NCBI GenBank assembly: GCA_964354655.1
Contig: CAYHAL010000001.1
Coordinates: 32,032 to 91,205 of the forward strand
DNA from: an uncultured Dehalococcoidales bacterium
GTDB lineage: Bacteria; Chloroflexota; Dehalococcoidia; Dehalococcoidales; E44-bin46
Reading direction: 5' to 3'
Length of the DNA: 59,174 nt
The notes beneath the pieces were generated by a model. It was not told where the DNA came from and ran no database searches. It saw nothing but the letters and a program-made list of their open reading frames with translations. The translations under genes and the position numbers were made by a program. Positions 8,856 through 23,824 of the stretch are shown here, piece by piece (positions within the stretch are counted from its first letter, which is position 1; every line of letters starts with the position of its first letter).

Positions 8856-9962
8856 ATGTTTTGGAAGGATCAGTGCGGCTTTGCCGCTGAAGAGTCTTTA
8901 GACTCTCGATTGAAGGCTATCTGTGACTGGGTGGGGAAAGAGACTGGTGCCTCCTATGCCATTTTACTCCTTTATGACCGAGAGGGTTCACAATTACACC
9001 AGACTGCCTGGTATGGGCAGGAACAAGCCTGGGAAGGTGAGGCGGCTGTTACGCAGTGGGTTCTGTCTAGAGCCAAGCCATTATTTCTACAAGGGCAAGC
9101 CGATGCTAAGGAAATCGTAGGCTATAGCTTGGGGAGGGGTGTACTGCCGCTTATCTGTGTCCCAATAATGCGCAATGCCAGTCCGAAGGGCGTTCTCTGT
9201 GCTGGCGCACCCCATTCTGCGAGGAAGGCGTTCTCATGCTGGCTGCCCTTTCTTGGATCGCTGGGGGAGCTAGCTGGTGTACTCATAGAGAATCAAAGCC
9301 TTCTGCGGAGTCTGGGCAACCGGGAAGAGCAAGTGCGGAACCTCATCAGGGATACCCTTGAGGCTCAGGAAGCGGAGCGGGAGCGCATCTGTCTCGAAGT
9401 TCATGATGGGGTGACTCAGACTCTAACTTCAGCCTTCCATTATCTCCAGACCTTGGAGGCGGTATCAACTGAAGGCACCCCGGGTAGACAATTACTCCTC
9501 AGGGCAAGCGCTTTGTTAAGGCGAGCCATACAGGAATCGAGGGAGGTCATCAATAGTCTCCAGCCGGCAACCCTGAGGGACCTCGGCCTTGTTGCCACAC
9601 TGCACCAGGAGATGCAAGAACTGGAGCAAGAGCTGGGATGGGAAATAGACTTTAAGGCTGACGCCATCAGGCTTCCTAAAGACACAGAGACCGGGTTATA
9701 TCGAATTATCCATGAGGCTATCACCAATGCCAGAAAACATGCTAACACCAAGCGCCTCCGCATCAGGCTAACCTCTATAAATGGCCGGGTAAATGTCGAA
9801 GTTAAGGATTGGGGTATCGGGTTTAACTACGACCCCTGGGATATGGCGGGGAGGCAAGGTACCGGTCTACTGAGCATACGTAAGCGGGCGGAGCTTTTGC
9901 AAGGTACTTGTGACATCCAAAGTGCCCCCGGTCAGGGTACCATGGTGCGAGTGCAGATATAG
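8856..9962 (+). CDS. Cytoplasmic sensor histidine kinase: GAF-like N-terminus, HisKA_3 and HATPase_c (NarL-partner class)
   Basis: The H-box is ERERICLEVHDGVTQTL. ATPase motifs are ITNARKHA, DWGIGF and GTGLLSIRKRAELL. No hydrophobic TM segment is visible. Confidence 0.85.
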   Translation: MFWKDQCGFAAEESLDSRLKAICDWVGKETGASYAILLLYDREGSQLHQTAWYGQEQAWEGEAAVTQWVLSRAKPLFLQGQADAKEIVGYSLGRGVLPLICVPIMRNASPKGVLCAGAPHSARKAFSCWLPFLGSLGELAGVLIENQSLLRSLGNREEQVRNLIRDTLEAQEAERERICLEVHDGVTQTLTSAFHYLQTLEAVSTEGTPGRQLLLRASALLRRAIQESREVINSLQPATLRDLGLVATLHQEMQELEQELGWEIDFKADAIRLPKDTETGLYRIIHEAITNARKHANTKRLRIRLTSINGRVNVEVKDWGIGFNYDPWDMAGRQGTGLLSIRKRAELLQGTCDIQSAPGQGTMVRVQI

Positions 9963-9990
9963 GGAAATCTTTACCTATAAGAAGGTAAGC

Positions 9991-10656
9991 ATGAATAAGA
10001 CGAAGGTACTTTTAGTAGATGACCACCCGGTGGTGCGTGAAGGCCTTCGCACTATGCTGGGTACTGTTCCAGACATCGAGGTGGTAGCTGAAGCCGGTGA
10101 CGGATTTGAGGCTATAGAGAAGGTAAAAGAGCACCGGCCTGACGTGGTTCTAATGGACCTCCGTATGCCTAACCTGGATGGTCTAGAAGCTACCCGGCGC
10201 ATAAAAAGCCAGCTCCCGTCTACAGCGGTCATCGTGCTCACCGTATACGACAATGACGCCTATGTTGTGGATGCAGTTAGAGCTGGTGCCGGTGGCTATG
10301 TGCTCAAGGATGCCTCAAAAGACCTCCTCGTCCATACTATCCGGGCAGTCAGTAGCGGGGCAACCCTAATCAGGACTAACCTTCTGCATAGGGCAATATC
10401 CTCCCTGGTTGACTCTAAAAGTGCCTATCAAAAATCGGGGATGTCCACTACTCCAGGTCTAGCGTTGCTAACACCTCGTGAACAGGAGGTGCTCAAATTG
10501 GTGGCTGAGGGGCGGACTAACAAGGATATAGGCAAAGAACTGAGTATCACCGAAGATACAGTGAAGAAGCATATGCAGAACATTATCGCTAAGTTGAATG
10601 CCTCCAGTCGAACTGACGCTGCACTGAAGGCAACACGTGCCGGTGTTATTAAGTAA
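9991..10656 (+). CDS. Response regulator, NarL/LuxR family (REC + HTH)
   Basis: MNKTKVLLVDDHPVVREGL...DVVLMDLRMPNLDG is followed by the LuxR HTH LTPREQEVLKLVAEGRTNKDIGKELSITEDTVKKHMQNI. ATG 9991 was chosen over the ORF-track 9910 start, which overlaps the kinase. Confidence 0.9.
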   Translation: MNKTKVLLVDDHPVVREGLRTMLGTVPDIEVVAEAGDGFEAIEKVKEHRPDVVLMDLRMPNLDGLEATRRIKSQLPSTAVIVLTVYDNDAYVVDAVRAGAGGYVLKDASKDLLVHTIRAVSSGATLIRTNLLHRAISSLVDSKSAYQKSGMSTTPGLALLTPREQEVLKLVAEGRTNKDIGKELSITEDTVKKHMQNIIAKLNASSRTDAALKATRAGVIK

Positions 10657-10992: not shown

Positions 10993-11199
10993 GTGGCAGT
11001 AGAAAAGTCAATGGCATCCTCGAGCCTAGCTGAGGTTATTGACAGAATCCTGGACAAGGGCATTGTGATAGATGCCTGGGTTCGCATTAGCCTAGTGGGC
11101 ATTGAGATTTTGGCTGTCGAGGCCAGAATAGTGACTGCTGGTGTGGACACTTTCCTCAAATATGCCGAAGCTGTTGGGCTGACCGCAGCCGCTAGGTAG
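10993..11199 (+). CDS. gvpA: Major gas vesicle structural protein GvpA
   Basis: [54 protein letters not shown] is the canonical GvpA core. AGGAGGTG lies 7-8 nt before GTG 10993; an alternative ATG is at 11011. Confidence 0.92.
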
Positions 11200-11397: not shown

Positions 11398-11919
11398 ATG
11401 GGTTTAAGGCAGGAATTCCATGGGGCTAGTAGAAAGCGGCGAACCGAGATAGATGCCATCCGCTCTGGTGTAGCCAGTATACGCACTGAAGTAGCTGGTA
11501 TGCTTAGGGAGTTAGCTAGGGAAGATGCCAAGCGCAGGTCTGAGATAGATGCCATCCGCTCTGGAGTAGCTACTATGCGTTCCGAGGTGGCCGATATGCT
11601 CGAAGAGCTGGCAAAGCCGTATGCTGAGCGCAGGTCGAAGGTAACCGATTATATGCGCTCCGAGGTGAGTGCTATTTTTGAGGAGATTTTGGGCAAGGCA
11701 CCGGCTGAGAAAAAGGGAGCACCAGTGGTTAGGGAGAAACCAGTTAGTGAACTTCGTGATAGGGTCTTTGCCTACCTAGCTAACCACCCCAATGGGACTA
11801 AATTAACCGAGCTGGAAGAGAAGTTTGGCGTAGCCCGCATTCAGATGGCAAGGGTAGTCCGTGAGTTGATGGATAGTAACAAGGTAGAAAAACGCGAGCA
11901 ATTTTACTTTGCTATCTAG
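11398..11919 (+). CDS. Gas-vesicle-cluster protein with 32-aa tandem repeats and a C-terminal winged-helix-like domain
   Basis: Repeats are RRTEIDAIRSGVASIRTEVAGMLRELAREDAK, RRSEIDAIRSGVATMRSEVADMLEELAKPYAE and a shortened third unit. The C-terminus LRDRVFAYLANHPNGTKLTELEEKFGVARIQMARVVRELMDSNKVEK looks wHTH-like. Confidence 0.7.
   Translation: MGLRQEFHGASRKRRTEIDAIRSGVASIRTEVAGMLRELAREDAKRRSEIDAIRSGVATMRSEVADMLEELAKPYAERRSKVTDYMRSEVSAIFEEILGKAPAEKKGAPVVREKPVSELRDRVFAYLANHPNGTKLTELEEKFGVARIQMARVVRELMDSNKVEKREQFYFAI
11437..11628 (+). repeat. Two 96-nt tandem coding repeats, with a degenerate third unit to about 11691
   Basis: gagatagatgccatccgctctgg occurs at about 11446 and 11542. The period is 96 nt (32 codons). 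Confidence 0.85.
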
Positions 11920-11986: not shown

Positions 11987-12913
11987 ATGGTTATGACTAG
12001 GGGCGAGGAAATGTTAACGGTGCTGGAACCCCGTCCGTTATCCAAGTTTGTGGAGACGCAATTCATCAAGGAAATTACTGACCGCGCCATGGCCTATACT
12101 ATGGCTGGGTTCCCGGTTCATTTCAGGGGGGCATCAGGGACAGGGAAGACAACACTGGCTCTGCATGTTGCCAGCAAGATTGGCCGACCAGTAGTAATGA
12201 TACATGGGGATGAAGAATTCAGCACATCAGATTTAGTGGGAGGTGAATACGGCTACCGTTTGAGGAGGGTAGTGGATAACTTTATCCATTCCGTATTGAA
12301 GACTGAAGAGGACATGACAAGGAGGTGGGTGGATAACCGCCTGACAGCCGCCTGCAAGTACGGGTTGACCCTTATCTACGACGAGTTTACCCGTTCTCGC
12401 CCGGAGGCAAATAATGTCCTGCTTTCAGTTCTCCAGGAGAAGATGCTTGACGTGCCTGCCCATCAGGGTGACGGTGACGGCTACCTGAGGGTAGACCCTA
12501 ACTTTACCGCCATCTTCACCAGCAACCCAGAGGAGTATGCCGGTGTCTACCGGAGCCAGGATGCCCTTCGTGACCGAATGGTAACCATAGACCTGGGCCA
12601 CTTTGATGAAGAGACGGAGATAGCCATAACTGGGGCTAAATCAGGGATGCGCCGGGCAGAAGCCGCCAAGATTGTAAGTATTATCCGAGCTTTGCGCGAC
12701 TCTGGCGTGTGTGAGTATGCCCCCACTGTTCGGGGGGCGATAATGATAGCCAAGACCCTTAAAGTACTACATGGCTCAGTCAGTAGCAGAAATAATGCCT
12801 TTAGGAAGTTGTGTCTTGATATCCTGGCATCAGAGACAAGTCGAGTCGGCAGCAATGCTCAAAGCGCCAGGGTAAGAGAGAAATTGAGTGAGATAATTGA
12901 CCAATATTGCTGA
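11987..12913 (+). CDS. gvpN: Gas vesicle AAA+ ATPase GvpN
   Basis: Walker A is FRGASGTGKTTLA and Walker B is TLIYDEFTRS, consistent with the CbbQ/NirQ/NorQ/GvpN family. It sits directly after gvpA as in known gvp clusters. Confidence 0.9.
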   Translation: MVMTRGEEMLTVLEPRPLSKFVETQFIKEITDRAMAYTMAGFPVHFRGASGTGKTTLALHVASKIGRPVVMIHGDEEFSTSDLVGGEYGYRLRRVVDNFIHSVLKTEEDMTRRWVDNRLTAACKYGLTLIYDEFTRSRPEANNVLLSVLQEKMLDVPAHQGDGDGYLRVDPNFTAIFTSNPEEYAGVYRSQDALRDRMVTIDLGHFDEETEIAITGAKSGMRRAEAAKIVSIIRALRDSGVCEYAPTVRGAIMIAKTLKVLHGSVSSRNNAFRKLCLDILASETSRVGSNAQSARVREKLSEIIDQYC

Positions 12914-13448: not shown

Positions 13449-13667
13449 ATGGTAGCCATATCGCCTGATGAAGGGCTAATCTGGAGACAGCAGAAACTGC
13501 CGTCTGAAGAGAGACCGAGGCAGATAAGGATAAATTCTGCCGTGATAGGTGCTATCGCTCGACATTTGATAGCCTGGGAATGGGCAAGAGCCCTGAGGAA
13601 AATCGCCGAGCCGTGGGAATGGCAACAAGAGCTTGAACGGAGGGTTTTTCTGGGGATAAGACGATGA
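13449..13667 (+). CDS. Small Trp/Arg-rich hypothetical protein (72 aa)
   Basis: The ORF overlaps the next gene start by 4 nt (ATGA), which suggests coupling. No recognisable motifs. Confidence 0.4.
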   Translation: MVAISPDEGLIWRQQKLPSEERPRQIRINSAVIGAIARHLIAWEWARALRKIAEPWEWQQELERRVFLGIRR

Positions 13668-14722
13668 GGAAATATATATACGGCGTTATCAAAATAAGCC
13701 AGCCAGTGACTTTTGGTCAGTCCCTTCTGTCCTCAAGCCCTGAGGAGGTATACACCATATCCCATCGTGACCTTGCCTTCGTTATCAGTAACTATGATGG
13801 GAGTGATTTTGTTTTGCTGCCCAAGGAGGATAAACTGCGTTGCTTGATGACCCACCAAGGGATTATTGAGCGAGTGATGAAGGAAGGGTATACCATACTT
13901 CCGGTAAAGTTTGGCACCCTTGTCGAGGGTGAGGATGAAATACGCCGCATTTTAAAGCAAGAGTATACAAGGCTTGTCCAAAACTTAAACCAGATGGCTG
14001 GTCTGGTGGAGATAGAGGTAGCAGCTACCTGGGACTTGAACCAGGTTCTTGAGGAGATTGGCAGCGAGGAGGAGATTAGACAACTGGGGCGCTCCATGGT
14101 GGGTAAGTCTGCCTCAGAAATAATGGAAATCCAGATAAACGCTGGTAAAGTGGTTAAGAAATCTCTAGATAGACGGAGGGAGAACTACCGCTGTCAGACA
14201 ATGCAGTCCCTTGCCGAAGCAGCGCTGGATATACAACCAAACGTATTAGTTGCTGATGAGATGGTTATGAATATCGCCCTCCTTATTTCAAGGGAGAGGC
14301 AGAGGGAGTTTGATAGCCGGGTGAGGCAAGTAAATGAGGCCTTTAATGACCAGATTAATTTCCGTATTATCGGTCCTCTACCGCCTTACAGTTTCAGTAC
14401 GGTGGAGATAAAGCGTCCCGACCCGGTGAAGATTGAACAAGCGAGGCAATTGTTTGGGCTCGGCACTGAAGTTTCACATAAGGAGCTCAAGGAGGCTTAC
14501 CGTCGCCTGGTAGCTAAGAGCCACCCCGATGTGCACCTGGATGGTAGCGATGAGCAGTTCACCAAGGTGCGGGAAGCATTTGCTTTACTGCGTGATTATT
14601 GTCACGGGCAGAGTGTGGGTGTTGAGCAAAATACAAATGGGCGATGCTATTCGCTTAAGCCCAAGGATGTAAGCCAGGTTTTTCTGGTTGAGATAAAACG
14701 CCCAGCCCTTCCAACTGGCTAA
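13664..14722 (+). CDS. GvpF/L-family gas vesicle protein fused to a C-terminal J-domain (DnaJ-type, HPD motif)
   Basis: The N-terminus YIYGVIK...HRDLAFVISNY...ILPVKFGTL...GPLPPYSF matches the GvpF/L pattern. Residues ~257-312 (ARQLFGLGTEVSHKELKEAYRRLVAKSHPDVHLDGSDEQFTKVREAFALLRD) match the J-domain pattern, with HPD at nt 14522-14530. Confidence 0.85.
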   Translation: MRKYIYGVIKISQPVTFGQSLLSSSPEEVYTISHRDLAFVISNYDGSDFVLLPKEDKLRCLMTHQGIIERVMKEGYTILPVKFGTLVEGEDEIRRILKQEYTRLVQNLNQMAGLVEIEVAATWDLNQVLEEIGSEEEIRQLGRSMVGKSASEIMEIQINAGKVVKKSLDRRRENYRCQTMQSLAEAALDIQPNVLVADEMVMNIALLISRERQREFDSRVRQVNEAFNDQINFRIIGPLPPYSFSTVEIKRPDPVKIEQARQLFGLGTEVSHKELKEAYRRLVAKSHPDVHLDGSDEQFTKVREAFALLRDYCHGQSVGVEQNTNGRCYSLKPKDVSQVFLVEIKRPALPTG

Positions 14723-15532
14723 ATGCTTGGGGTTAGTATGGCGGGAGAAGAGACTAGGGAAGCAAAGTACCTGTACTGCATAATAAAGTGCAGCCAGGAG
14801 GGCAACTTTAACGGTGTACCGGCTGTTGGTGGTCACTGCAGCCAGATTCACACCGTTGTCTTCAAGGATTTAGCCTGCGTGGTTAGCGGCTCGCCGAACA
14901 CGGAGTATGATAGTACCCGGGTAAACATGATGGCTCACGAGACGGTGATCGAGCGGGTAATGAGGGAATTCACCGTTCTACCCATAAGATTCGGCACCGT
15001 TACCACAAAAGGCTCGGGGTCGCCGGTTGAGGATATCCGCCATAAGCTCCTTGAGCGTCATTATGATGAATTTCTAAGCCTGCATGAGGACATGAGTGGG
15101 GGGGTTGAGCTAGGGCTTAAGGTATTATGGCGTGATGAGAAGGCAATCTATCAAGAGGTAGTTGCTGAAAACAGGGAATTGCGTAGGTTGAGAGATTCTA
15201 TTCAGGGTCGTTCTGCTGAGGCGACACACTTTGACCGGGTGCGATTGGGAGAAATGGTTAAAAAGGCGCTTGACCAAAAACGGGATAAGGAGGCGAGGAT
15301 GCTCCTGACTCGCTTTCACCCTATAGCCGACCGAATACGAGAGAACAGAATTATTATCGACCGAATGGTTCTGAACGCTGCCCTGCTGGTAAATAAAGAC
15401 CGGGAGAGGGAGTGTGATGAAATAGTGGAGAGACTGGATGAAGAGCTGGGAGAGAGGATGGTGTTCAAGTACACCGGGCCTAACCCTCCATTTAACTTTT
15501 GTCAGATTACGGTCAAATGGGAGAAGGAATGA
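14723..15532 (+). CDS. GvpF/L-family gas vesicle protein
   Basis: AKYLYCIIK...FKDLACVVSG...VLPIRFGTV...GPNPPFNF. An alternative start is ATG 14738. Confidence 0.85.
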   Translation: MLGVSMAGEETREAKYLYCIIKCSQEGNFNGVPAVGGHCSQIHTVVFKDLACVVSGSPNTEYDSTRVNMMAHETVIERVMREFTVLPIRFGTVTTKGSGSPVEDIRHKLLERHYDEFLSLHEDMSGGVELGLKVLWRDEKAIYQEVVAENRELRRLRDSIQGRSAEATHFDRVRLGEMVKKALDQKRDKEARMLLTRFHPIADRIRENRIIIDRMVLNAALLVNKDRERECDEIVERLDEELGERMVFKYTGPNPPFNFCQITVKWEKE

Positions 15533-15813
15533 AAGAAGGTAGGAAAATTCAGCAAGAAGAGGGAGGCGATCTTCTTACTAATATACTGGCCTTTCCTATT
15601 CTTGGCGCCCCAATAATGGTTCACTGGGTCGCCCAAAAGCTCGTCGAGGCAGCGGAGCAAGAGGAGCTGGACGAAGGTAAGCTCCAAGGTAAGTTACTGG
15701 AGCTTCAGATGCAATATGAGCTGGGAGAAATTGATGACGAAGAGTATGCGAGACAGGAAACAGCTATACTGGAAAGGCTCAACGCTATTCGTAAAACTAA
15801 GGAAGAGGAATAG
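15529..15813 (+). CDS. gvpG: Gas vesicle protein GvpG
   Basis: LLTNILAFPILGAPIMVHWVAQKLVEAAEQEELDE...LQMQYELGEIDDEEYARQETAILERLNAIR is typical GvpG. ATG 15529 overlaps the upstream stop (ATGA). The ORF-track start at 15499 is also possible. Confidence 0.8.
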   Translation: MKEGRKIQQEEGGDLLTNILAFPILGAPIMVHWVAQKLVEAAEQEELDEGKLQGKLLELQMQYELGEIDDEEYARQETAILERLNAIRKTKEEE

Positions 15814-15827
15814 TAAAAGGACGTAAT

Positions 15828-16136
15828 ATGGTGCCGACAGGGGATAAAATTACTACCAAAGGGGGGGCAAAGATGACTACCGGAATAACAAGTCTGGCTG
15901 AGCGAGCCAAGCAGCAATTGGCTAAGGTCACTGGCTTTAGCCCAGTAGCGGCAGTGGGGGGATTTAAAGACGAGGAGGGCTGGCATATCTCGGTGGATAT
16001 GCTAGAAATGGCCAGATTGCCCGAAGCAACCGATATCATTGGCACTTATGAGGTTTTGCTCGACCAGGGTGGCAACATGGTGAAATTTGAGAAAAAGAGG
16101 GCACGTCTCCGCGGTGAGCCGTATGAGGAAGGATAG
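15828..16136 (+). CDS. gvpO: Gas vesicle protein GvpO-like
   Basis: AKQQLAKVTGFSPVAAVGGFKDEEGWHISVDMLEMARLPEATDIIGTYEVLLDQGGNMVKFEKKRARLRGEPY matches the GvpO pattern (domain, then E.GW...V...E..R.P...D....YEV.LD..G). An alternative ATG is at 15873. Confidence 0.72.
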   Translation: MVPTGDKITTKGGAKMTTGITSLAERAKQQLAKVTGFSPVAAVGGFKDEEGWHISVDMLEMARLPEATDIIGTYEVLLDQGGNMVKFEKKRARLRGEPYEEG

Positions 16137-16202
16137 CTAAGTGCTACCATATTAGCTTCGTCACCATAGGAGTAGAAGCGCAACTAAAGCAAAAGAGGAT
16201 TG

Positions 16203-16562
16203 ATGAATATGGCATTACAAGCGCAAAAGGACACCGCTGGTACCTTATTTGATGTGATTGACAGGATACTGGACAAGGGGCTGGTTATTAATGCCGATAT
16301 CATGGTCTCGGTTTCCGGCGTTGAGCTACTAGGCATAAAAATAAGAGCTGCCCTGGCATCATTTGAAACCGCCGCCAGATACGGGCTGGAATTCCCTTCA
16401 GGAACTAATTTCCAAACCCCGGCCTGGCAGGAGGCAGTAGCCACTAAGGAAGAATGCCCTCAATGTGGTAAAAGGGTGCCAGCTAAGGAACTCTTGTCGG
16501 CAGGATGCCCCTGGTGTGGCTGGATAAGCGTTAAGGCAAAAGTAGCTCTGCCGCCAGCCTAA
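16203..16562 (+). CDS. GvpJ/GvpA-family protein with a C-terminal CxxC...CxxC zinc ribbon
   Basis: [48 protein letters not shown] is the GvpA/J core. The tail is CPQCGKRVPAKELLSAGCPWCGW. Confidence 0.8.
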   Translation: MNMALQAQKDTAGTLFDVIDRILDKGLVINADIMVSVSGVELLGIKIRAALASFETAARYGLEFPSGTNFQTPAWQEAVATKEECPQCGKRVPAKELLSAGCPWCGWISVKAKVALPPA

Positions 16563-16589: not shown

Positions 16590-16970
16590 GTGGGGATAAA
16601 GAAGTACGCAAGAGGAAAAGAAGCTATGGCAATTGTTGATATTGATGAAAAGAACCTGAAGCACGGTGTGCTGGGGCTGGTTATAGCCTTGGTGGAAATA
16701 ATCAAAGATACCCTCAAGCTTCAGGCAATGAAGCGTATGGAGGGAGGTAGCCTGACCGGGGAAGAGATAGAGCGGTTGGGAGAAGCGCTTATGGACCTAG
16801 ATATAGCCATTGACGAGATAAAGCAAGAGCAGGGGATTACCGAGTCGGTAAAATCGGTGAGGGATGGGCTGGATAATCTGGTAGATGGTGTCATTGACCA
16901 GTTCCTAAACCCTGAGAGGTGGCGGCAGGTAGCCGAATCAAAGGAGGAATCTAGCTGTGCAGCAAGATGA
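16590..16970 (+). CDS. gvpK: Gas vesicle protein GvpK
   Basis: LKHGVLGLVIALVEIIKDTLKLQAMKRMEGGSLTGEEIERLGEALMDLDIAIDEIK is the GvpK signature. GTG 16590 is taken from the ORF track; an alternative ATG is at 16626. Confidence 0.8.
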   Translation: MGIKKYARGKEAMAIVDIDEKNLKHGVLGLVIALVEIIKDTLKLQAMKRMEGGSLTGEEIERLGEALMDLDIAIDEIKQEQGITESVKSVRDGLDNLVDGVIDQFLNPERWRQVAESKEESSCAAR

Positions 16971-17760
16971 CAAGACTGAAGCCCGGAGAGAAGGGCAGGG
17001 GAGGTATCTTTACTGCATTGCCGGTAGTGGTGAGAGGGTAAGCCTGGGAGCTATCGGGATTGATGGTCATAATGTCTATACCGTTCCCTACCGGGATATA
17101 TGCGCCGTAGTACATAAGTGTCCTGCTGAGCCGTATCAGTCAACCGATAGAGAGTTGGTAAACTGTTGGCTACTGGCACACCAGAAGGTAGTGGACGAAG
17201 CTTGGCAAAGGTGGGGCACAGTGCTTCCTGTGGGATTTGATACCATAGTCATGGACAAAGATGGGGTTGGGGCGGAGGATAATGTCAGAGACTGGCTTCA
17301 AAAGGACTACGATAGCCTCAAGGACAAAATAGAGAAACTGAGGGGCAAGGCAGAGTATGGTGTGCAAATCTTTTGGTCACCCCAGGTTATTGCCCAGAAT
17401 CTAACCAAGACAAGCCCTGAAATCAGGCAGCTTGGGGAGGCAATAAAATCCCAGCCAAGGGGCATTGCCTACCTCAATAAGCAGAAGTTAGAGGGTGCAC
17501 TAAAGAAGGAATTAAAATCCAAAGCCGACCAGTGCTTTAGGGATTTCTATGAGCGTATTCGGAGACACGTTGACAATATCGTTGTGGGAAAAACGAAGCT
17601 GGGTGTTCAGGATGCTCAGATGATAATGAATCTCTCCTGCTTACTCCCCAAAGATAAGGCTGCCGAACTGGGGGAGGAACTGGGGAAGATTAATGCCATC
17701 GATGGGTTCTCGGTTCGCTTTACCGGACCCTGGCCGCCATATAGTTTTGTTGGCACCTGA
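16957..17760 (+). CDS. GvpF/L-family gas vesicle protein (third paralog)
   Basis: GRYLYCIAGS...YRDICAVVHK...VLPVGFDTI...GPWPPYSF. The GTG start overlaps gvpK by 14 nt. Confidence 0.85.
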   Translation: MQQDDKTEARREGQGRYLYCIAGSGERVSLGAIGIDGHNVYTVPYRDICAVVHKCPAEPYQSTDRELVNCWLLAHQKVVDEAWQRWGTVLPVGFDTIVMDKDGVGAEDNVRDWLQKDYDSLKDKIEKLRGKAEYGVQIFWSPQVIAQNLTKTSPEIRQLGEAIKSQPRGIAYLNKQKLEGALKKELKSKADQCFRDFYERIRRHVDNIVVGKTKLGVQDAQMIMNLSCLLPKDKAAELGEELGKINAIDGFSVRFTGPWPPYSFVGT

Positions 17761-17776: not shown

Positions 17777-18073
17777 ATGGAACCAACCCGGGATACACAT
17801 TATACATTGGTAGACTTATTGGACAGGGTGCTTGATAAAGGTGTGGTGCTCTATGCCGATATTATCGTCTCAGTTGCTGGCATACCTCTAGTCGGTGTCA
17901 ACCTGCGGGCAGCGCTGGCTGGCATGGAGACCATGCTAAGCTACGGAGTAATGCAAGAGTGGGACCAGAAAATTCGTGCCGTGAAAGGGCTCGAGAAAGC
18001 GGGACTAGTTGCCTATACCAGTGCTACTAACCTGAGCGGGGAGAGGACATATGCCAAAGGCAGTTGGCATTGA
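17777..18073 (+). CDS. Small GvpA/J/M/S-family gas vesicle protein
   Basis: TLVDLLDRVLDKGVVLYADIIVSVAGIPLVGVNLRAALAGMETMLSYG. The 3' end overlaps the Hsp70 start by 23 nt. Confidence 0.8.
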   Translation: MEPTRDTHYTLVDLLDRVLDKGVVLYADIIVSVAGIPLVGVNLRAALAGMETMLSYGVMQEWDQKIRAVKGLEKAGLVAYTSATNLSGERTYAKGSWH

Positions 18074-19883
18074 CCTAGGGACTACTTTCTCACTGGTAGC
18101 CTACCTTGAGTGTGGCCGACCAGTGGTAATTCCCAATAGAGAGGGCAGCTGGCTAACACCCTCGGTGGTGGCATTTCTCAAAAACGGGAAGCGGCTGGTG
18201 GGGCAACTTGCCCGGCAGCAGGCTGTTGCCAACCCGGAGGGTACTATCTTCTCTATAAAGAGACATATGGGGCATCAGACTTACCTTGACCTTGGTGGTT
18301 TACCCAATGATAAGCAGCTTATCCAGCAGATTAAGCGGCACATGGGCTCTGATTACCGGATAAGGATTGACCACAATGAATATACCCCTGAGGAAATCTC
18401 GGCTATGATTCTTAAAAAGCTTAAGACGGATGCCGAAGAATATCTTGATGACAAGATAGAGCAGGCAGTTATCAGTGTGCCTGCCTATTTCAATGTCAGC
18501 CAACGGCAAGCCACTATAGATGCGGCTACGATTGCTGGCATCAAGGTCATGAGAATAATTGACGAGCCAACAGCCGCCGCCCTCGCCTATGGTTTGGAAA
18601 TGGAGGACGTCCACACCATCCTGGTCTGGGACTTAGGCGGCGGCACCTTTGATGTCTCTATCCTTGAGCTTGGCGATGGAATATTTGAGGTCAAGGCGGT
18701 CAACGGCAATACCTGGTTGGGTGGGGACGATTATGACCAGCGTATCGTAGATTATCTGACTGAAGAGTTTCAAGAGCAATATGGGATTGACCTCCGGAAA
18801 GATAGGGCAGTTTGTCGCCGACTGAAGGAAGTGGCTGAAAAAGCTAAGATTGAACTGACGGATAGCGAGGCTACTCTTATAGAGGTACCCTTTATCAATG
18901 CTGGCGAAGGTAGCCCCAAGCACTGGGAGATAACCCTGACCAGGGCAAAATTTGAAGAGCTAACCGAGGATTTGCGGCAGAAGATGATTGCCCCCACTAC
19001 GAAGGCGCTGGCTGATGCCGGACTCAGACCAGAAGATATAGACCGCCTTATCTTGGTCGGCGGCGCCACAAGGATGCCGGCGGTTAGAAAGCTGAGTGTG
19101 AAAATCGTAGGCAAAGAGCCCTATAAGGATATCCAGCCTGACGAAGCAGTGGCTTTGGGAGCAGCCATCCAGGCTGGCATTTTAATGGGGCAAATACAAA
19201 AGAAGGTGCTAATAGATGTTACCCCACTGTCTCTGGGTATTGAGACCCAGGGCGGTATATTTACCAAGATTATTGAGCGGAATACCCCTATCCCAACCTC
19301 CAAGAGTCAGATTTTTACCAACACCTCGGATAATCAGGCCTCCATGGATATTCATGTATTGCAGGGTGAACGGGATATGGCTGTAGATAACATTACCCTA
19401 GATAGGTTTGATTTAACTGGTATATCCTCAGCGCCCCGTGGGGAAGCCAGGGTTGAGGTGACCTTTGATATTGATGCTAATGGCATTCTTCATGTGTCGG
19501 CTAGCGACCTTTATGGCGATAGCTGCCAGGAGGTGAGGGTTAGCCCTCGTTTCTATGGGCTGCCTCAAGAGGAGATAGCCCGCATGGTTGAAGACGCAGC
19601 TAGATTCTCCGAGGATGACCGTAAACGGCGGCAGGAAGTGGAAATTGGCATCAAAGCCGATAATGTGGTGCGGGCTGCCCGGCAGGGTATTACTGAAGCT
19701 GATGTAACTGCGAATCTGAAGTTGATGCAAGAGGTGGAGAAGGCAATATTAGAGGTGCAGCAGGCTGTAGCCGACGGAGACAGTGCTGAGATCAAGTCAA
19801 GAACCGAAGCCCTGGAAAAGGAGATTAAGGCATTATACCAGCAAAGAGAGCCAAAACTAGAGGCAGAGCATGTAACCTCTTAG
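18051..19883 (+). CDS. Hsp70/DnaK-family chaperone encoded in the gvp cluster
   Basis: [39 protein letters not shown] and a substrate-binding domain ([13 protein letters not shown]...VLQGER...[13 protein letters not shown]). GGGGAGAGGA SD. No grpE or full-length dnaJ lies next to it. Confidence 0.9.
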
Positions 19884-19998: not shown

Positions 19999-20433
19999 AT
20001 GGGGGTAATTGGGACAAGGGTATCACCAGTTCTGGAGCAATATATCCAAGACTACTGCAGTGGTTTAGGGAAAACCACTTCTCAGTGGCTCAGGGAACTT
20101 ATCGAAAAGGAAATCTCGGGTAAGACGCCAAACCCAGCGCTTGGGGATGCCATCAATGGGCTTAGCAATTTGGCTTCTGACAATGCCAAATTTATGATTG
20201 GCATACTGGCGGTGTCCTTGGGCATATATAACACCCTTATCCGGGGCGAGATTTCAAGTCACCCTGAGAGGGCAAAGCAACTAGAACAGGCACACAGTGA
20301 ATTCGTAGGCAGGCTGCTCAAAAACCTACCGCTAAAGGAGCAGCTTACCGTCGAAATGGGAATAAGAATATCGGATTTGGCAACCGAAATAGAAAGGATT
20401 AAGTCGGAAAAGCAAATACAGCAGGAGGTGTAA
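19999..20433 (+). CDS. Putative ribbon-helix-helix (CopG/Arc-like) regulator with a hydrophobic segment and coiled-coil tail
   Basis: GTRVSPVLEQYIQDYCSGLGKTTSQWLRELIEKEI fits a beta-alpha-alpha RHH pattern. The hydrophobic stretch is FMIGILAVSLGIYNTLI. It is the first gene behind the palindrome-bearing promoter. Confidence 0.6.
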   Translation: MGVIGTRVSPVLEQYIQDYCSGLGKTTSQWLRELIEKEISGKTPNPALGDAINGLSNLASDNAKFMIGILAVSLGIYNTLIRGEISSHPERAKQLEQAHSEFVGRLLKNLPLKEQLTVEMGIRISDLATEIERIKSEKQIQQEV

Positions 20434-20434
20434 G

Positions 20435-20971
20435 ATGGCTGAAGGGAAGAAAAAGGCAAAGGTAGAGTTTGATTTTGGGCTGGGGGGACTGTTTGAGGGG
20501 ATGGGTAAGCTCTTCGACCTAGTCTCCAAGATGACCGAGGAGGGAAAGGAAGAGTATACCCGTACCGGGGAAATTAAAGGTCTAGGTGATAAGGCTAAGG
20601 GAATCTACGGCTTTAGCATCAAGATGGGCTTAGGCGGTCAGCCAACGGTAGAGCATTTCGGTAACATCAAGAAGACAGCGAGGGGCTCAGTGGAGGTAGC
20701 CGAGGTCAGAGAGCCCATAGTTGATGTCTTCGACGAGGGAGGCTATCTATTAATTATTGCCGAAGTCCCTGGCGTCGAGGAGGAAAACATCGACCTTGAA
20801 ATAAGGGGGGATATTCTCAGCCTGAAGGCTGAGGGTAAAGATAGGAAGTACAGTAAAGAGGTTCTCCTGCCATCAGAGGTTGAGGCTGAAAGTATGAAGA
20901 CCCAGTATAAAAGCGGAGTCTTGGAGATAAAACTTGCCAAGAAGATATCACCGTCGGGTAAAGGCAGTTAG
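20435..20971 (+). CDS. Hsp20/alpha-crystallin family small heat-shock protein
   Basis: [77 protein letters not shown] is an ACD domain. GGAGGTG SD. Confidence 0.85.
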
Positions 20972-20975
20972 AAAT

Positions 20976-23123
20976 ATGCCAGAAATGAAGACAAAAGACG
21001 CCTTGATACTTAAGGTAGCCGAAGCATTAGCCAAAGACGTTGGTCGGGGGATAGCCAGGCTTGACCCCAAAGACATGGCAAGACTGGGGGTTGAGGTGGG
21101 GGATATCATTCAGGTCATGGGTAAGAGACCTACCCCAGCCAAGGTTATGCCGGCGTTTATGGAGGACAGAGGCAAGGATATTATCCAGATAGATGGCATT
21201 ACTCGGGAGAATGCTCAGATAGGTCTTGATGAAAAGGGGCAAGTTCAGAAAGCTGAGTACAAGACGGCTAGCGTAGTGGTTCTTGCCCCCTTAACTACAC
21301 GAGGGACATTAAAGGAAAGGGATACTGGTTATATCGGGAAGCTGCTCGAGGGACTAGCCGTTAGTGCCGGGGACAAGGTAAGGGCTACCCTCTTTGGCAC
21401 TCGTTACCAGGAATTCTCTGTGGTTGATACTAGCCCCAAGGGAATAACTGTCATCCATTCTACCACTACCATAAAGATAGCCGGAGAAGGGGCACGGGTA
21501 AAGGAAGGGGTTGGAATTACCTATGAGGATATTGGTGGGCTGCATCGGGAGACCCAGAAAATAAGGGAGATGATTGAACTACCGTTGAAGTACCCTGAGG
21601 TATTTGAGAGATTGGGGATAGATGCCCCCAAAGGGGTATTACTTCATGGACCACCAGGCTGTGGCAAGACCTTGATAGCCAGGGCGGTAGCCAATGAGAC
21701 CTCAGCCCATTTTATACATATAAGTGGCCCCGAGGTTATCCATAAGTTCTACGGGGAGAGTGAAGCTCACCTGCGAGCCCTTTTTGAGGATGCCAGAACA
21801 AATGCCCCATCGATTGTATTTGTGGATGAGATAGATGCTATCGCTTCTAAACGGGAGGAGATCCGGGGTGACCAGCAGGTAGAGCGAAGGGTGGTAGCTC
21901 AACTTCTGGCTTTGATGGATGGCTTGAAATCGAGGGGGGAGGTAGTGGTCATCGGAGCGACCAACATACCTAATGTGCTCGACCCAGCCTTGAGACGGCC
22001 GGGGCGCTTTGATAGAGAGATAGCCATTAGTATTCCTGATAAGAACGCAAGGCTGGAGATACTTCATATTCATATCAGGGGAATGCCTCTGGCTGCTGAT
22101 GTAGACCTGGAAAGGATTGCTGGAATTACTCACGGGTTTGTTGGGGCAGACCTGGAGGCTCTAGCCAGAGAAGCCGCCATGATAACCCTGAGGAAGATAA
22201 TGCCTAAGATTGAATTCGAAGCTGATAATATCCCCTATGAGTTGCTTCTGGAGCTGGAAGTAACTATGGATGACTTCCTGAATGCATTAAAGGAGGTAGA
22301 GCCCTCAGCCATCAGGGAGGTCTTCATTGAGATTCCTGATGTTCGTTGGGATGATGTCGGGGGACTAGACGAGGTAAAACGGGTGCTCAAGGAAAGCATT
22401 GAATGGCCGCTAAAATACCCGGAGCTTTTTGACCACATGAGAACCAATCCCCCCAAAGGCATCCTACTTTATGGTCCTCCTGGTAGCGGGAAGACATTCC
22501 TAGCTAAGGCAGTAGCCAGTGAGAGCGAGATCAATTTCATTTCGGTCAAGGGTCCAGAGCTACTGTCTAAGTGGGTTGGAGAATCAGAGAGGGGCATAAG
22601 GGAGGTATTTAGAAAAGCTAAACAGGCTAGCCCTTGCATTGTCTTTTTTGATGAAATAGATGCTATAGCCCCAATTCGGGGGGCGAGTAGCGATTCTCAT
22701 GTTACTGAACGGGTAATCAGCCAATTTCTGACCGAGTTGGATGGAATGGAAGAGCTCAAAGGTGTGATTGTGCTGGCAGCTACTAACCGGCTGGATATGG
22801 TAGACCCAGCCTTGCTTCGACCTGGCAGGTTTGACCTTCGGCTGGAATTGCCCACCCCCGATGCTAAAGCCCGCCTGGAAATATTCAATATACATACCAG
22901 AGGAAAACCACTAGCTGCTGACGTGGACCTCAAGGCTCTGGCTGATACCACTGATGGCTTGGTTGGGGCTGACATAGAGGCTATCTGCAGAAGGGCTTCC
23001 ATGCTGGCTATACGAGAGTTTCTGGGTAAGCATAGAACCTTCAAGTCGGAAACTAAAAAGGTAGACCTTTCCCAAGCTAAAGTCAGTAATAAGCACTTTG
23101 AGGAGGTAATCAGGGAGTTGTGA
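20976..23123 (+). CDS. Cdc48/VCP-like double-ring AAA+ ATPase (N domain + D1 + D2)
   Basis: The Cdc48-N-like region is [38 protein letters not shown]. Two Walker A motifs are present, GPPGCGKT and GPPGSGKT. Two Walker B motifs are present, IVFVDEID and [11 protein letters not shown] 20976 follows the hsp20 stop by 4 nt. Confidence 0.9.
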
Positions 23124-23824
23124 AAGAAATGAGAAGATTGATTTATATCCCTATCATTCATACTGATTCTGACATGGGCAGTCTGGCTTCGGCACTTGAG
23201 CTGGGCACGACTGCAGTCTGTGGGGAGAAACGCTGGGAAAGGCATAAGGCAACCGCCTCTAGATTCTGGCAGATGGTATTGGACTTTTTTGAAACATTGG
23301 ATGCCAATGGTCTTAAGGTATACCAGGATGGTTTTGTTTCAGATGGTGTCTCGAGCCGAAAGATGGTTCGAGAGGCGGCGAGGAGAGGGAGTAAGAACTA
23401 TGAAATCATCCTTGGTCTGCTTAGCCGGGGCGCTGAGATAGTATCTACAGAGGATAAGGCGCTGCTTCAGGAGGAATATGGATACATTAGCCGGATTATT
23501 GATTCTGAGACCCTCTCCCAGAGAGCGCTTGCCTACAAGGAATATAATTTGCGGAAGAATCAATTAATGATAGAAAGAGATAGCTTTATAGCTAGAAGGA
23601 TAAATGAGACCCTGGCGGATGGAGAGGCGGGGGCTCTATTTATGGGAGCCTACCATGATATTGTTCCTCACTTGGCTAGGGACATCGCGGTAAGGCAGCT
23701 CAAAGAGCGAGAGAAGGTAAAGGCCTACTTTGATGAGTTAATGTATGGTAGAGACGAAAGGAACTTCGAACAGCTGACAAGGTACATTAACTCAGCAGTT
23801 GGGGCGCTAGTGATTATAAACTAG
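23120..23824 (+). CDS. Conserved hypothetical protein, last gene of the hsp20-cdc48 operon
   Basis: The GTG start overlaps the cdc48 stop (GTGA); an alternative ATG is at 23129. The motif LFMGAYH is faintly reminiscent of the TraB/GumN/ChaN-like GxxH motif. No firm family assignment. Confidence 0.6.

Follow-up and report, generated by a model that had tools for sequence, protein, structure and literature searches.

In the HscB/HscA system of the isc operon, a specialised J-protein and its dedicated Hsp70 serve a single client, IscU, and the adaptor delivers this difficult client to the chaperone. In eukaryotes, auxilin recruits Hsc70 to clathrin cages. For gas vesicles, GvpF has been reported as the primary, transient and chaperone-like binder of the shell protein, and only recently it was proposed to act as a chaperone of GvpA (PMC11445434). 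Here we analysed a stretch of 59,174 nucleotides from an uncultured Dehalococcoidales bacterium (GenBank assembly GCA_964354655.1, contig CAYHAL010000001.1, positions 32,032 to 91,205 of the forward strand; the whole stretch is called the window, and positions are counted from its first letter). One gene of its gas-vesicle (gvp) cluster, termed gvpF-J, encodes a GvpF-type domain followed by a J-domain. HscB/HscA would be the closest functional analogue of GvpF-J.

The reading frame and the translation given for this gene in a preliminary description of the window were reproduced. The ATG of gvpF-J overlaps the stop codon of an upstream 72-aa open reading frame (ORF) in the sequence ATGA, and the ATG of the next gene, a gvpF, directly abuts its TAA. 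The identical protein was present on 7 contigs, and the independent sequencing run ERR4334731 contained the same gene with the same neighbours in the same order. The gene and its parts are as follows:

13664..14722, + strand: gvpF-J gene, 352 aa (translation checked, also called in the independent assembly)
13664..14398, + strand: GvpF-type domain, aa 1-245 (Pfam PF06386, NCBIfam, Foldseek)
14399..14413, + strand: outgoing beta-strand TVEIK, aa 246-250 (AlphaFold2/DSSP; homologue conservation)
14423..14611, + strand: predicted J-domain helices I-III, aa 254-316 (Pfam match aa 264-311, nt 14453-14596; Foldseek rmsd 1.2-1.8 Å over about 54 residues)
14522..14530, + strand: HPD tripeptide of the helix II-III loop, aa 287-289 (sequence; homologue conservation)
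14684..14698, + strand: returning beta-strand LVEIK, aa 341-345 (AlphaFold2/DSSP, in the full-length and the isolated C-terminal models)

Assignment of residues 1-245 to the GvpF/L family, first made from the letters alone, was upheld by three methods. Pfam GvpL_GvpF (PF06386) matched aa 3-245 with an E value of 1.1e-52 and 180 bits over model positions 2-244 of 245, that is, over the whole family model. NCBIfam scored this half higher as GvpF (88.5 bits) than as GvpL (58.9 bits), and a Foldseek search of the PDB with the full-length GvpF-J model matched its N-terminal 245-250 residues to 6l5d_B (E 2.8e-14) and 4qsg (E 1e-13). The target-normalised TM-score to GvpF crystal structures was 0.75-0.80 (Foldseek), and the two-domain GvpF fold was present in the model. 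The likeness to canonical GvpF/GvpL proteins (4QSG, 6L5D) covers aa 1-245 both in sequence and in predicted fold. It includes the gene context, as gvpF-J likewise lies among gvpN, gvpG, gvpO, gvpJ and gvpK; altogether gvpA, N, F, G, O, J, K, L and M surround it on the same strand. The characterised canonical proteins stop shortly past a PPYSF-type motif, as do the two plain GvpF/L paralogues of the window. GvpF-J contains this motif as GPLPPYSF at aa 237-244. The paralogues had been described as sharing exactly this ending, but their endings are the related GPNPPFNF and GPWPPYSF. Unlike the canonical proteins, GvpF-J continues for about 107 residues, which comprise a strand, the J-domain, a linker and a second strand.

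The presence of a J-domain in this extension had been proposed together with a scoring of the C-terminus against PF00226, and both sequence and fold searches agreed with the proposal. Pfam DnaJ (PF00226) matched aa 264-311 with 35.5 bits (gathering cut-off 27.8; E 1.1e-8) and gave 37.3 bits when the C-terminal 107 residues were searched alone; no other family matched. When a profile of the C-terminal region was compared with PDB sequences, all 60 distinct matches were J-domains, the best with an E value of 2.6e-12, and E. coli DnaJ with 3.7e-11. A full-length AlphaFold2 model was built from 91 homologues and reached a mean pLDDT (predicted local distance difference test) of 88 and a pTM (predicted TM-score) of 0.81. 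Foldseek aligned it to J-domains with probability 1.00 and a root-mean-square deviation (rmsd) of 1.1-1.8 Å over 49-58 residues. The top Foldseek matches of a separate model of aa 232-352 were J-domains only; one of them was 5nro_B, the J-domain of E. coli DnaJ in complex with DnaK, with an rmsd of 1.3 Å over 54 columns. The HPD tripeptide lies exactly where it had been placed beforehand, at nt 14522-14530, and is flanked by the predicted helices 272-286 and 296-316. The signature of helix II and the loop reads KEAYRRLVAKSHPD and that of helix III FTKVREAFALLRD, corresponding at the alignment level to KEAYRRL..K.HPD and F..V.EAF.LL.

Neither Pfam nor NCBIfam detected a G/F region, a zinc finger or a DnaJ C-terminal domain in GvpF-J, and the CxxCxGxG motif was absent from all ORFs of the window. 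The J-domain is of the same kind as in type I DnaJ. Unlike type I DnaJ, however, GvpF-J matches DnaJ models over the J-domain only: the DnaJ equivalog models of NCBIfam matched just aa 262-312 with 16-31 bits versus cut-offs of 338-619, over about positions 6-59 of these whole-protein models. GvpF-J is not a type I or type II DnaJ; the lack of the G/F region, the zinc finger and the DnaJ C-terminal domain places it in class C (type III) of the J-domain proteins. Two residues after helix III, Y312 and C313 (nt 14600-14602), were invariant in 26 homologues. A second cysteine, C328 in GvpF-J (nt 14645-14647), occurs near the short strand 328-330 in many lineages, not all of them (CYSL here, CSF in Desulfobacterota and Anaerolineales). 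Together, C313 and C328 may form a disulfide or a metal site specific to the GvpF-J family.

Two copies of the hexapeptide VEIKRP bracket the J-domain, the first at aa 247-252 (nt 14402-14419), the second at aa 342-347 (nt 14687-14704). The near-repeat was noted already in the preliminary description, and it is not expected by chance, because an exact 6-residue repeat arose in only 527 of 200,000 composition-preserving shuffles of the protein (0.26%). Its explanation as the scar of a domain insertion or duplication could not be maintained. The DNA copies are identical at 14 of 18 nt and all 4 differences are synonymous third positions, the two strands agree at 6 of 9 positions in only 9 of the 91 homologues (mode 2 of 9), and each strand is conserved separately, so a recent event was rejected. 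In strand 1, T246, V247, E248, R251 and P252 are each at least 90% conserved among these homologues, and in strand 2 the same holds for L341 and R346. The consensus is [ST]TVE[VI]xRP for the first strand and [FL]L[VI]x[IV][KR]R for the second, which in distant family members reads LLINIRR, ILVKV, WIAVKP or LMVTIG. Thus, the VEIKRP repeat consists of two structural strands that follow a common pattern, and it is not the scar of a recent insertion; the terminal strand may possibly have been duplicated long ago.

Both strands were predicted with good confidence in the full-length AlphaFold2 model, and aa 347-352 were predicted to be disordered. When the C-terminal 121 residues were modelled without the GvpF body, the two VEIKRP strands were retained, likewise the short strands 269-271 and 328-330. 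Pairing of the VEIKRP strands is suggested by their persistence in this model, and on the basis of the predicted secondary structure they probably form a hairpin carrying the J-domain, with HPD presumably exposed. Mean-field direct coupling analysis (170 sequences, effective number about 90) yielded noisy top pairs and showed no clear signal between the strands, the best strand-strand pair ranking 115 of 60,031.

In the protein database, the search found 438 relatives. Architecture was assessed in the best 120 clusters (45-92% identity), and PF06386 and PF00226 occurred together in more than 110 of them, the exceptions being a few fragments. A scan of one genome per species gave 145 relatives, and 80 loci from metagenome-assembled genomes (MAGs) were kept. 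These belong to Chloroflexota (Dehalococcoidia, Anaerolineales and others), Desulfobacterota (Desulfobacteraceae, Desulfatiglandales), Elusimicrobia, Omnitrophota, Actinomycetota, Thermoleophilia, Planctomycetes, Nitrospirota, Chlamydiota and Alphaproteobacteria; the closest genome relative, with 75% identity, is from Dehalococcoidia, by which the window too would most likely belong there. The fusion is an old family and no local accident. A cultured carrier is the gas-vacuolate sea-ice bacterium Octadecabacter arcticus 238. Its plasmid pOA238_160 encodes WP_015497776.1 (360 aa; gvpF-J gene at L087, 11878-12960), which scored 145.9 bits with GvpL_GvpF and 28.0 bits with DnaJ (cut-off 27.8) and has HPD and both strands. 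The gvp cluster of this mobilizable plasmid is flanked by insertion sequence elements. A protein search of a plasmid collection returned plain GvpF/L matches and the Octadecabacter fusion.

In 26 homologues P288 and D289 were invariant and H287 was at least 90% conserved; in the 91 homologues (45-92% identity) each of the three residues reached at least 90%. HPD was missing in 12 of 83 loci with a complete J region. Eleven of them (L027, L033, L037, L041, L042, L045, L047, L054, L059, L063 and L076) form a single Chloroflexota clade in a neighbour-joining tree, the remaining one being L053, and the loss is therefore a derived state. In place of HPD these loci have, e.g., QRS, QRT or HRM; the rest of the domain with its J-like helices, the two strands and the gvp cluster have been kept. 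Searched with a J-domain hidden Markov model for a second J-protein that might serve the HPD-less clade, the related loci gave an extra match in 1 of 84 (L022) and the window gave none. In the closest genome relative (L006/P0017, Dehalococcoidia MAG CSMAG_2284, 75%), QPD stands at the canonical position, followed by AHPD. In DnaJ, exchange of H to Q in the HPD motif is inactivating.

In the window, the cluster runs on the + strand in the order gvpA, a 173-aa repeat protein, gvpN, a 152-aa coiled-coil protein, the 72-aa ORF, gvpF-J, gvpF, gvpG, gvpO, gvpJ, gvpK, gvpL, gvpM, Hsp70, a 144-aa ORF, Hsp20, a Cdc48-type AAA+ ATPase and a 234-aa ORF. The annotated features are:

10993..11199, + strand: gvpA, shell protein and first gene of the cluster (NCBIfam GvpA, 126.8 bits versus cut-off 100)
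11987..12913, + strand: gvpN AAA+ ATPase (TIGR02640, 330.8 bits versus cut-off 266.8)
14723..15532, + strand: plain GvpF-like paralogue (Pfam E 3.4e-61; NCBIfam GvpF 123 versus GvpL 65 bits)
15529-15813, + strand: gvpG (Pfam/NCBIfam; start from the gene call in L086)
15828-16136, + strand: gvpO (Pfam/NCBIfam)
16200-16562, + strand: gvpJ-like gene (Pfam/NCBIfam)
16590-16970, + strand: gvpK (Pfam/NCBIfam)
16957-17760, + strand: gvpL, GvpL-like paralogue (Pfam E 6.6e-69; NCBIfam GvpL 197.6 bits)
17777-18073, + strand: gvpM-like gene (Pfam/NCBIfam)
18051..19883, + strand: DnaK/Hsp70 paralogue, 610 aa (Pfam HSP70, E 1.3e-209)
19999-20433, + strand: 144-aa ORF after Hsp70
20435..20971, + strand: Hsp20/GvpH-like small heat-shock protein (Pfam HSP20; NCBIfam Hsp20, 160.5 bits versus cut-off 140)
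20934..23123, + strand: Cdc48-type double-ring AAA+ ATPase (Pfam CDC48_N, CDC48_2 and two AAA; TIGR01243, 981 versus 803 bits)
23120-23824, + strand: 234-aa ORF

An Hsp70 gene had been assumed in the gvp cluster, and the Pfam match at 18051-19883 confirmed it. The protein passed the NCBIfam DnaK model NF001413 (786 bits, cut-off 648) and remained below the cut-off of the stricter TIGR02350 (779 bits versus 822.55); in the NCBIfam ranking it was DnaK-like, with HscA models next. By these scores the window Hsp70 is a divergent relative of DnaK. The RIIxEPTAA motif with its arginine and an interdomain linker of the VLIDV type, both of them contact sites for the J-domain in the DnaK-DnaJ pair, are preserved in it, and it is the likely partner of the J-domain of GvpF-J. 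The N-terminal domain of this Hsp70 has a 25-residue insert in which IKRHMG is repeated (aa 69-74 and 94-99; nt 18255-18272 and 18330-18347). This insert is common to three cluster Hsp70s, those of L010 and L012 (Dehalococcoidia MAGs) and L004 (a metagenome contig). Most other gvp-cluster Hsp70s have no insert there, and the Anaerolineales ones carry an unrelated insert of similar length.

Two further features lie at the beginning of the cluster. The 173-aa ORF between gvpA and gvpN (11398-11919, + strand) contains a 32-residue repeat in about 2.5 copies, which begin at aa 14, 46 and 78 and have the pattern RR[ST]EIDAIRSGVA..R.EVA.ML.ELA, and has at its C-terminus a weak winged-helix-like match (HVO_A0261_N) below the cut-off; position and repeat length recall GvpC. 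Directly upstream of gvpA (8856-10656) are genes for a GAF histidine kinase (HisKA_3) and a LuxR-type response regulator, which likely control the gvp cluster. The same pair is located beside the gvp cluster in L001, L003 and L005, and the regulator in L004.

Of the 80 genome loci, 62 have a plain GvpF/L gene following gvpF-J, 57 have an Hsp20 gene and 51 a Cdc48-type AAA+ gene. In 37 loci the latter is directly upstream of the fusion gene, usually after Hsp20; this arrangement was found in Desulfobacterota, Elusimicrobia, Omnitrophota, Actinomycetota and others. In the window, the Cdc48-type gene is downstream of gvpF-J, after Hsp70 and Hsp20. Cdc48-type AAA+ is a more constant neighbour of gvpF-J than Hsp70. 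In 8 loci of Anaerolineales, the gene immediately before the fusion gene codes for Hsp70, and the two frames adjoin or overlap. An apparent triple fusion of Hsp70 and GvpF-J in L024 was rejected as an artefact, since its single 1002-codon frame reads across a gap of 100 N. In 47 of 85 related loci there are genes for small proteins of about 120-160 aa that contain 5-6 CxxCxGxG motifs of the DnaJ zinc-finger type, often directly upstream of gvpF-J (e.g. L001 9088-9519, L003 7656-8048, L005 8324-9091). At this position (13449-13667) the window has only the 72-aa ORF, which matched no family. In L001, L002 and L003 the clusters are larger and also encode a two-domain ArsA-type ATPase, another gvpN and additional copies of gvpF, gvpG and gvpA (e.g. 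L001 12538-14493); ArsA homologues in gvp clusters were noted previously (PMC2963123).

The established domain identities, fold, HPD and strand conservation and gene neighbourhood of GvpF-J form the basis for a functional proposal. We consider it rather probable that GvpF-J is a specialised J-protein which hands GvpF-bound shell protein over to Hsp70. The GvpF domain would serve as the client-binding module for the hydrophobic GvpA, or for its relatives GvpJ or GvpM. From other GvpF proteins, binding of GvpA or further Gvp proteins and a need for the protein in vesicle formation are known (PMC11445434). The chain would exit the GvpF body via strand 246-250, form the three-helix J-domain and come back via strand 341-345; therefore the J-domain would be held on a two-stranded stalk. 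The HPD loop would dock on ATP-bound Hsp70, either the DnaK paralogue of the operon or, where a lineage has none, the housekeeping DnaK. Docking would stimulate ATP hydrolysis, upon which Hsp70 would clamp the GvpF-bound client, and the aggregation-prone shell protein would stay soluble and be passed on for insertion. With Hsp20 and the Cdc48-type AAA+ ATPase, the operon would encode a full proteostasis set of its own. The supposition of the preliminary description, that through the fusion Hsp70 recruitment is tethered to a factor that binds GvpA, is plausible.

With HscB, GvpF-J shares an HPD J-domain joined to a client-specific domain and the lack of G/F region, zinc finger and DnaJ C-terminal domains. 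In both systems the J-protein gene is in one operon with the (here putative) client, and the window operon adds the divergent DnaK paralogue. The client domains are unrelated, a helical bundle in HscB and the GvpF fold in GvpF-J, and the J-domain is N-terminal in HscB, whereas in GvpF-J it is C-terminal and placed between two strands. Moreover, unlike in HscB/HscA, a dedicated Hsp70 accompanies only about half of the gvpF-J loci, and the function of GvpF-J is a proposal. Auxilin/GAK resembles GvpF-J in that the J-domain is C-terminal and attached to a module directed at a self-assembling protein shell or at the subunit of one, by which Hsp70 would act locally. The targeting domains of auxilin are, however, unrelated to GvpF, and auxilin drives disassembly, whereas the direction in GvpF-J may be assembly or removal.

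Several observations weigh against a transfer of client from GvpF-J to Hsp70. Canonical helix IV was not predicted by AlphaFold2, and of the 63 positions of the Pfam model the match spans 6-55. Of the 80 genome loci, 38 have an Hsp70 gene no further than about 10 kb away, and among the loci with wide flanks 21 of 40 had one within 10 kb; as the clusters of some relatives are much larger, Hsp70 could lie beyond the flank. The gvp cluster of Octadecabacter arcticus 238 contains Hsp20 and lacks both Hsp70 and Cdc48. Conversely, the HPD-less clade has retained the cluster Hsp70 in all 5 loci with wide flanks. Pfam and NCBIfam recognised no GrpE or other nucleotide-exchange factor in the window; the 144-aa and 234-aa ORFs were considered as GrpE-like candidates and rejected, having no significant match in either. 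In addition, GvpF-J is one of two GvpF-like paralogues in the window and need not be the one that binds GvpA.

Some of these data can be read differently. GvpF-J, acting with Hsp20 and the Cdc48-type unfoldase, might recruit Hsp70 to strip GvpF from its client or from a vesicle under formation, or to dispose of shell protein that has misassembled or collapsed. We regard such an auxilin-like quality control or uncoating as unlikely, though worth serious attention. Small heat-shock protein, Hsp70 and AAA+ unfoldase are the components of bacterial disaggregation systems, and across phyla it is the Cdc48-type AAA+, not Hsp70, that is the most conserved neighbour; in 37 of the 80 loci its gene immediately precedes the fusion gene, mostly together with Hsp20. 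GvpF binding to the shell protein is moreover transient, so that GvpF must be displaced (PMC11445434). The sequence itself, however, does not distinguish delivery from removal, and the position of the translationally coupled gene among the core assembly genes gvpN, gvpF, gvpG and gvpO fits biogenesis at least equally well. Less probable still, and in our estimate quite improbable, is that the J-fold functions mainly as a structural or interaction module, for example in oligomerisation or in docking another Gvp protein, with no Hsp70 cycle and HPD as an ancestral remnant. The 11-locus Chloroflexota clade and one further locus, which replaced HPD and kept domain, strands and cluster, would fit such a role, as would QPD in the close relative L006/P0017 and the lack of a nearby Hsp70 in about half of the loci. 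But HPD loss is derived and confined to a minority, and retention of HPD, the basic face of helix II and the helix III signature across phyla at 45-92% identity is unexpected without selection for Hsp70 contact. Furthermore, to our knowledge a housekeeping DnaK is available in every bacterium.

That the fusion is an artefact, created by assembly errors or a frameshift joining adjacent genes, or that the J-domain resemblance is due to chance, can practically be dismissed. Nothing was found in its favour, and the run of 100 N in L024 concerns a different junction. The identical protein is present on the 7 contigs including the independent run, the Pfam match exceeds its cut-off and the fold was confirmed; since the same architecture is conserved in more than 110 protein clusters and 80 genomes, the artefact is refuted.

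The pairing of PF06386 with PF00226 is visible in precomputed Pfam annotations, and the fusion proteins are named 'GvpL/GvpF family gas vesicle protein', 'Chaperone protein DnaJ' or 'hypothetical protein' in databases. No published description of the GvpF-J fusion was found in the searchable gas-vesicle literature, of which journal coverage is incomplete. Such gvp clusters were described in the ArsA paper, where the J-domain is unremarked (PMC2963123), and the Octadecabacter genome paper describes the cluster with no mention of the J-domain fusion (PMC3646047). We regard GvpF-J as a J-domain protein with a new targeting domain and equally as a GvpF with a new effector domain.

The fusion bears on the question how the very hydrophobic GvpA stays soluble and enters the growing gas vesicle. 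By the logic of gene fusions ('Rosetta stone'), an ancient and widespread joining of GvpF and a J-domain argues that GvpF would work with an ATP-driven chaperone. It names Hsp70 as the candidate partner and suggests that Hsp70 may help to build the gas-vesicle shell. The chaperone hypothesis for GvpF is thereby turned into a direct experiment, for which Octadecabacter arcticus 238 is available as a cultured gas-vacuolate carrier. On the practical side, gas-vesicle expression in E. coli is proteotoxic (PMC12848028), and co-expression of the adaptor with its Hsp70 would be a possible remedy for such stress in foreign hosts. More tentatively, and with somewhat less than even confidence, we propose that in a large and mostly uncultured part of the bacteria gas-vesicle biogenesis may depend on an operon-encoded proteostasis machine. 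It would consist of the GvpF-J adaptor, the DnaK paralogue or host DnaK, Hsp20, the Cdc48-type unfoldase and the DnaJ-type zinc-finger proteins, and GvpF-J would confer specificity in it as HscB does, by loading the shell protein onto Hsp70. If true, this would support the proposed chaperone role of GvpF.

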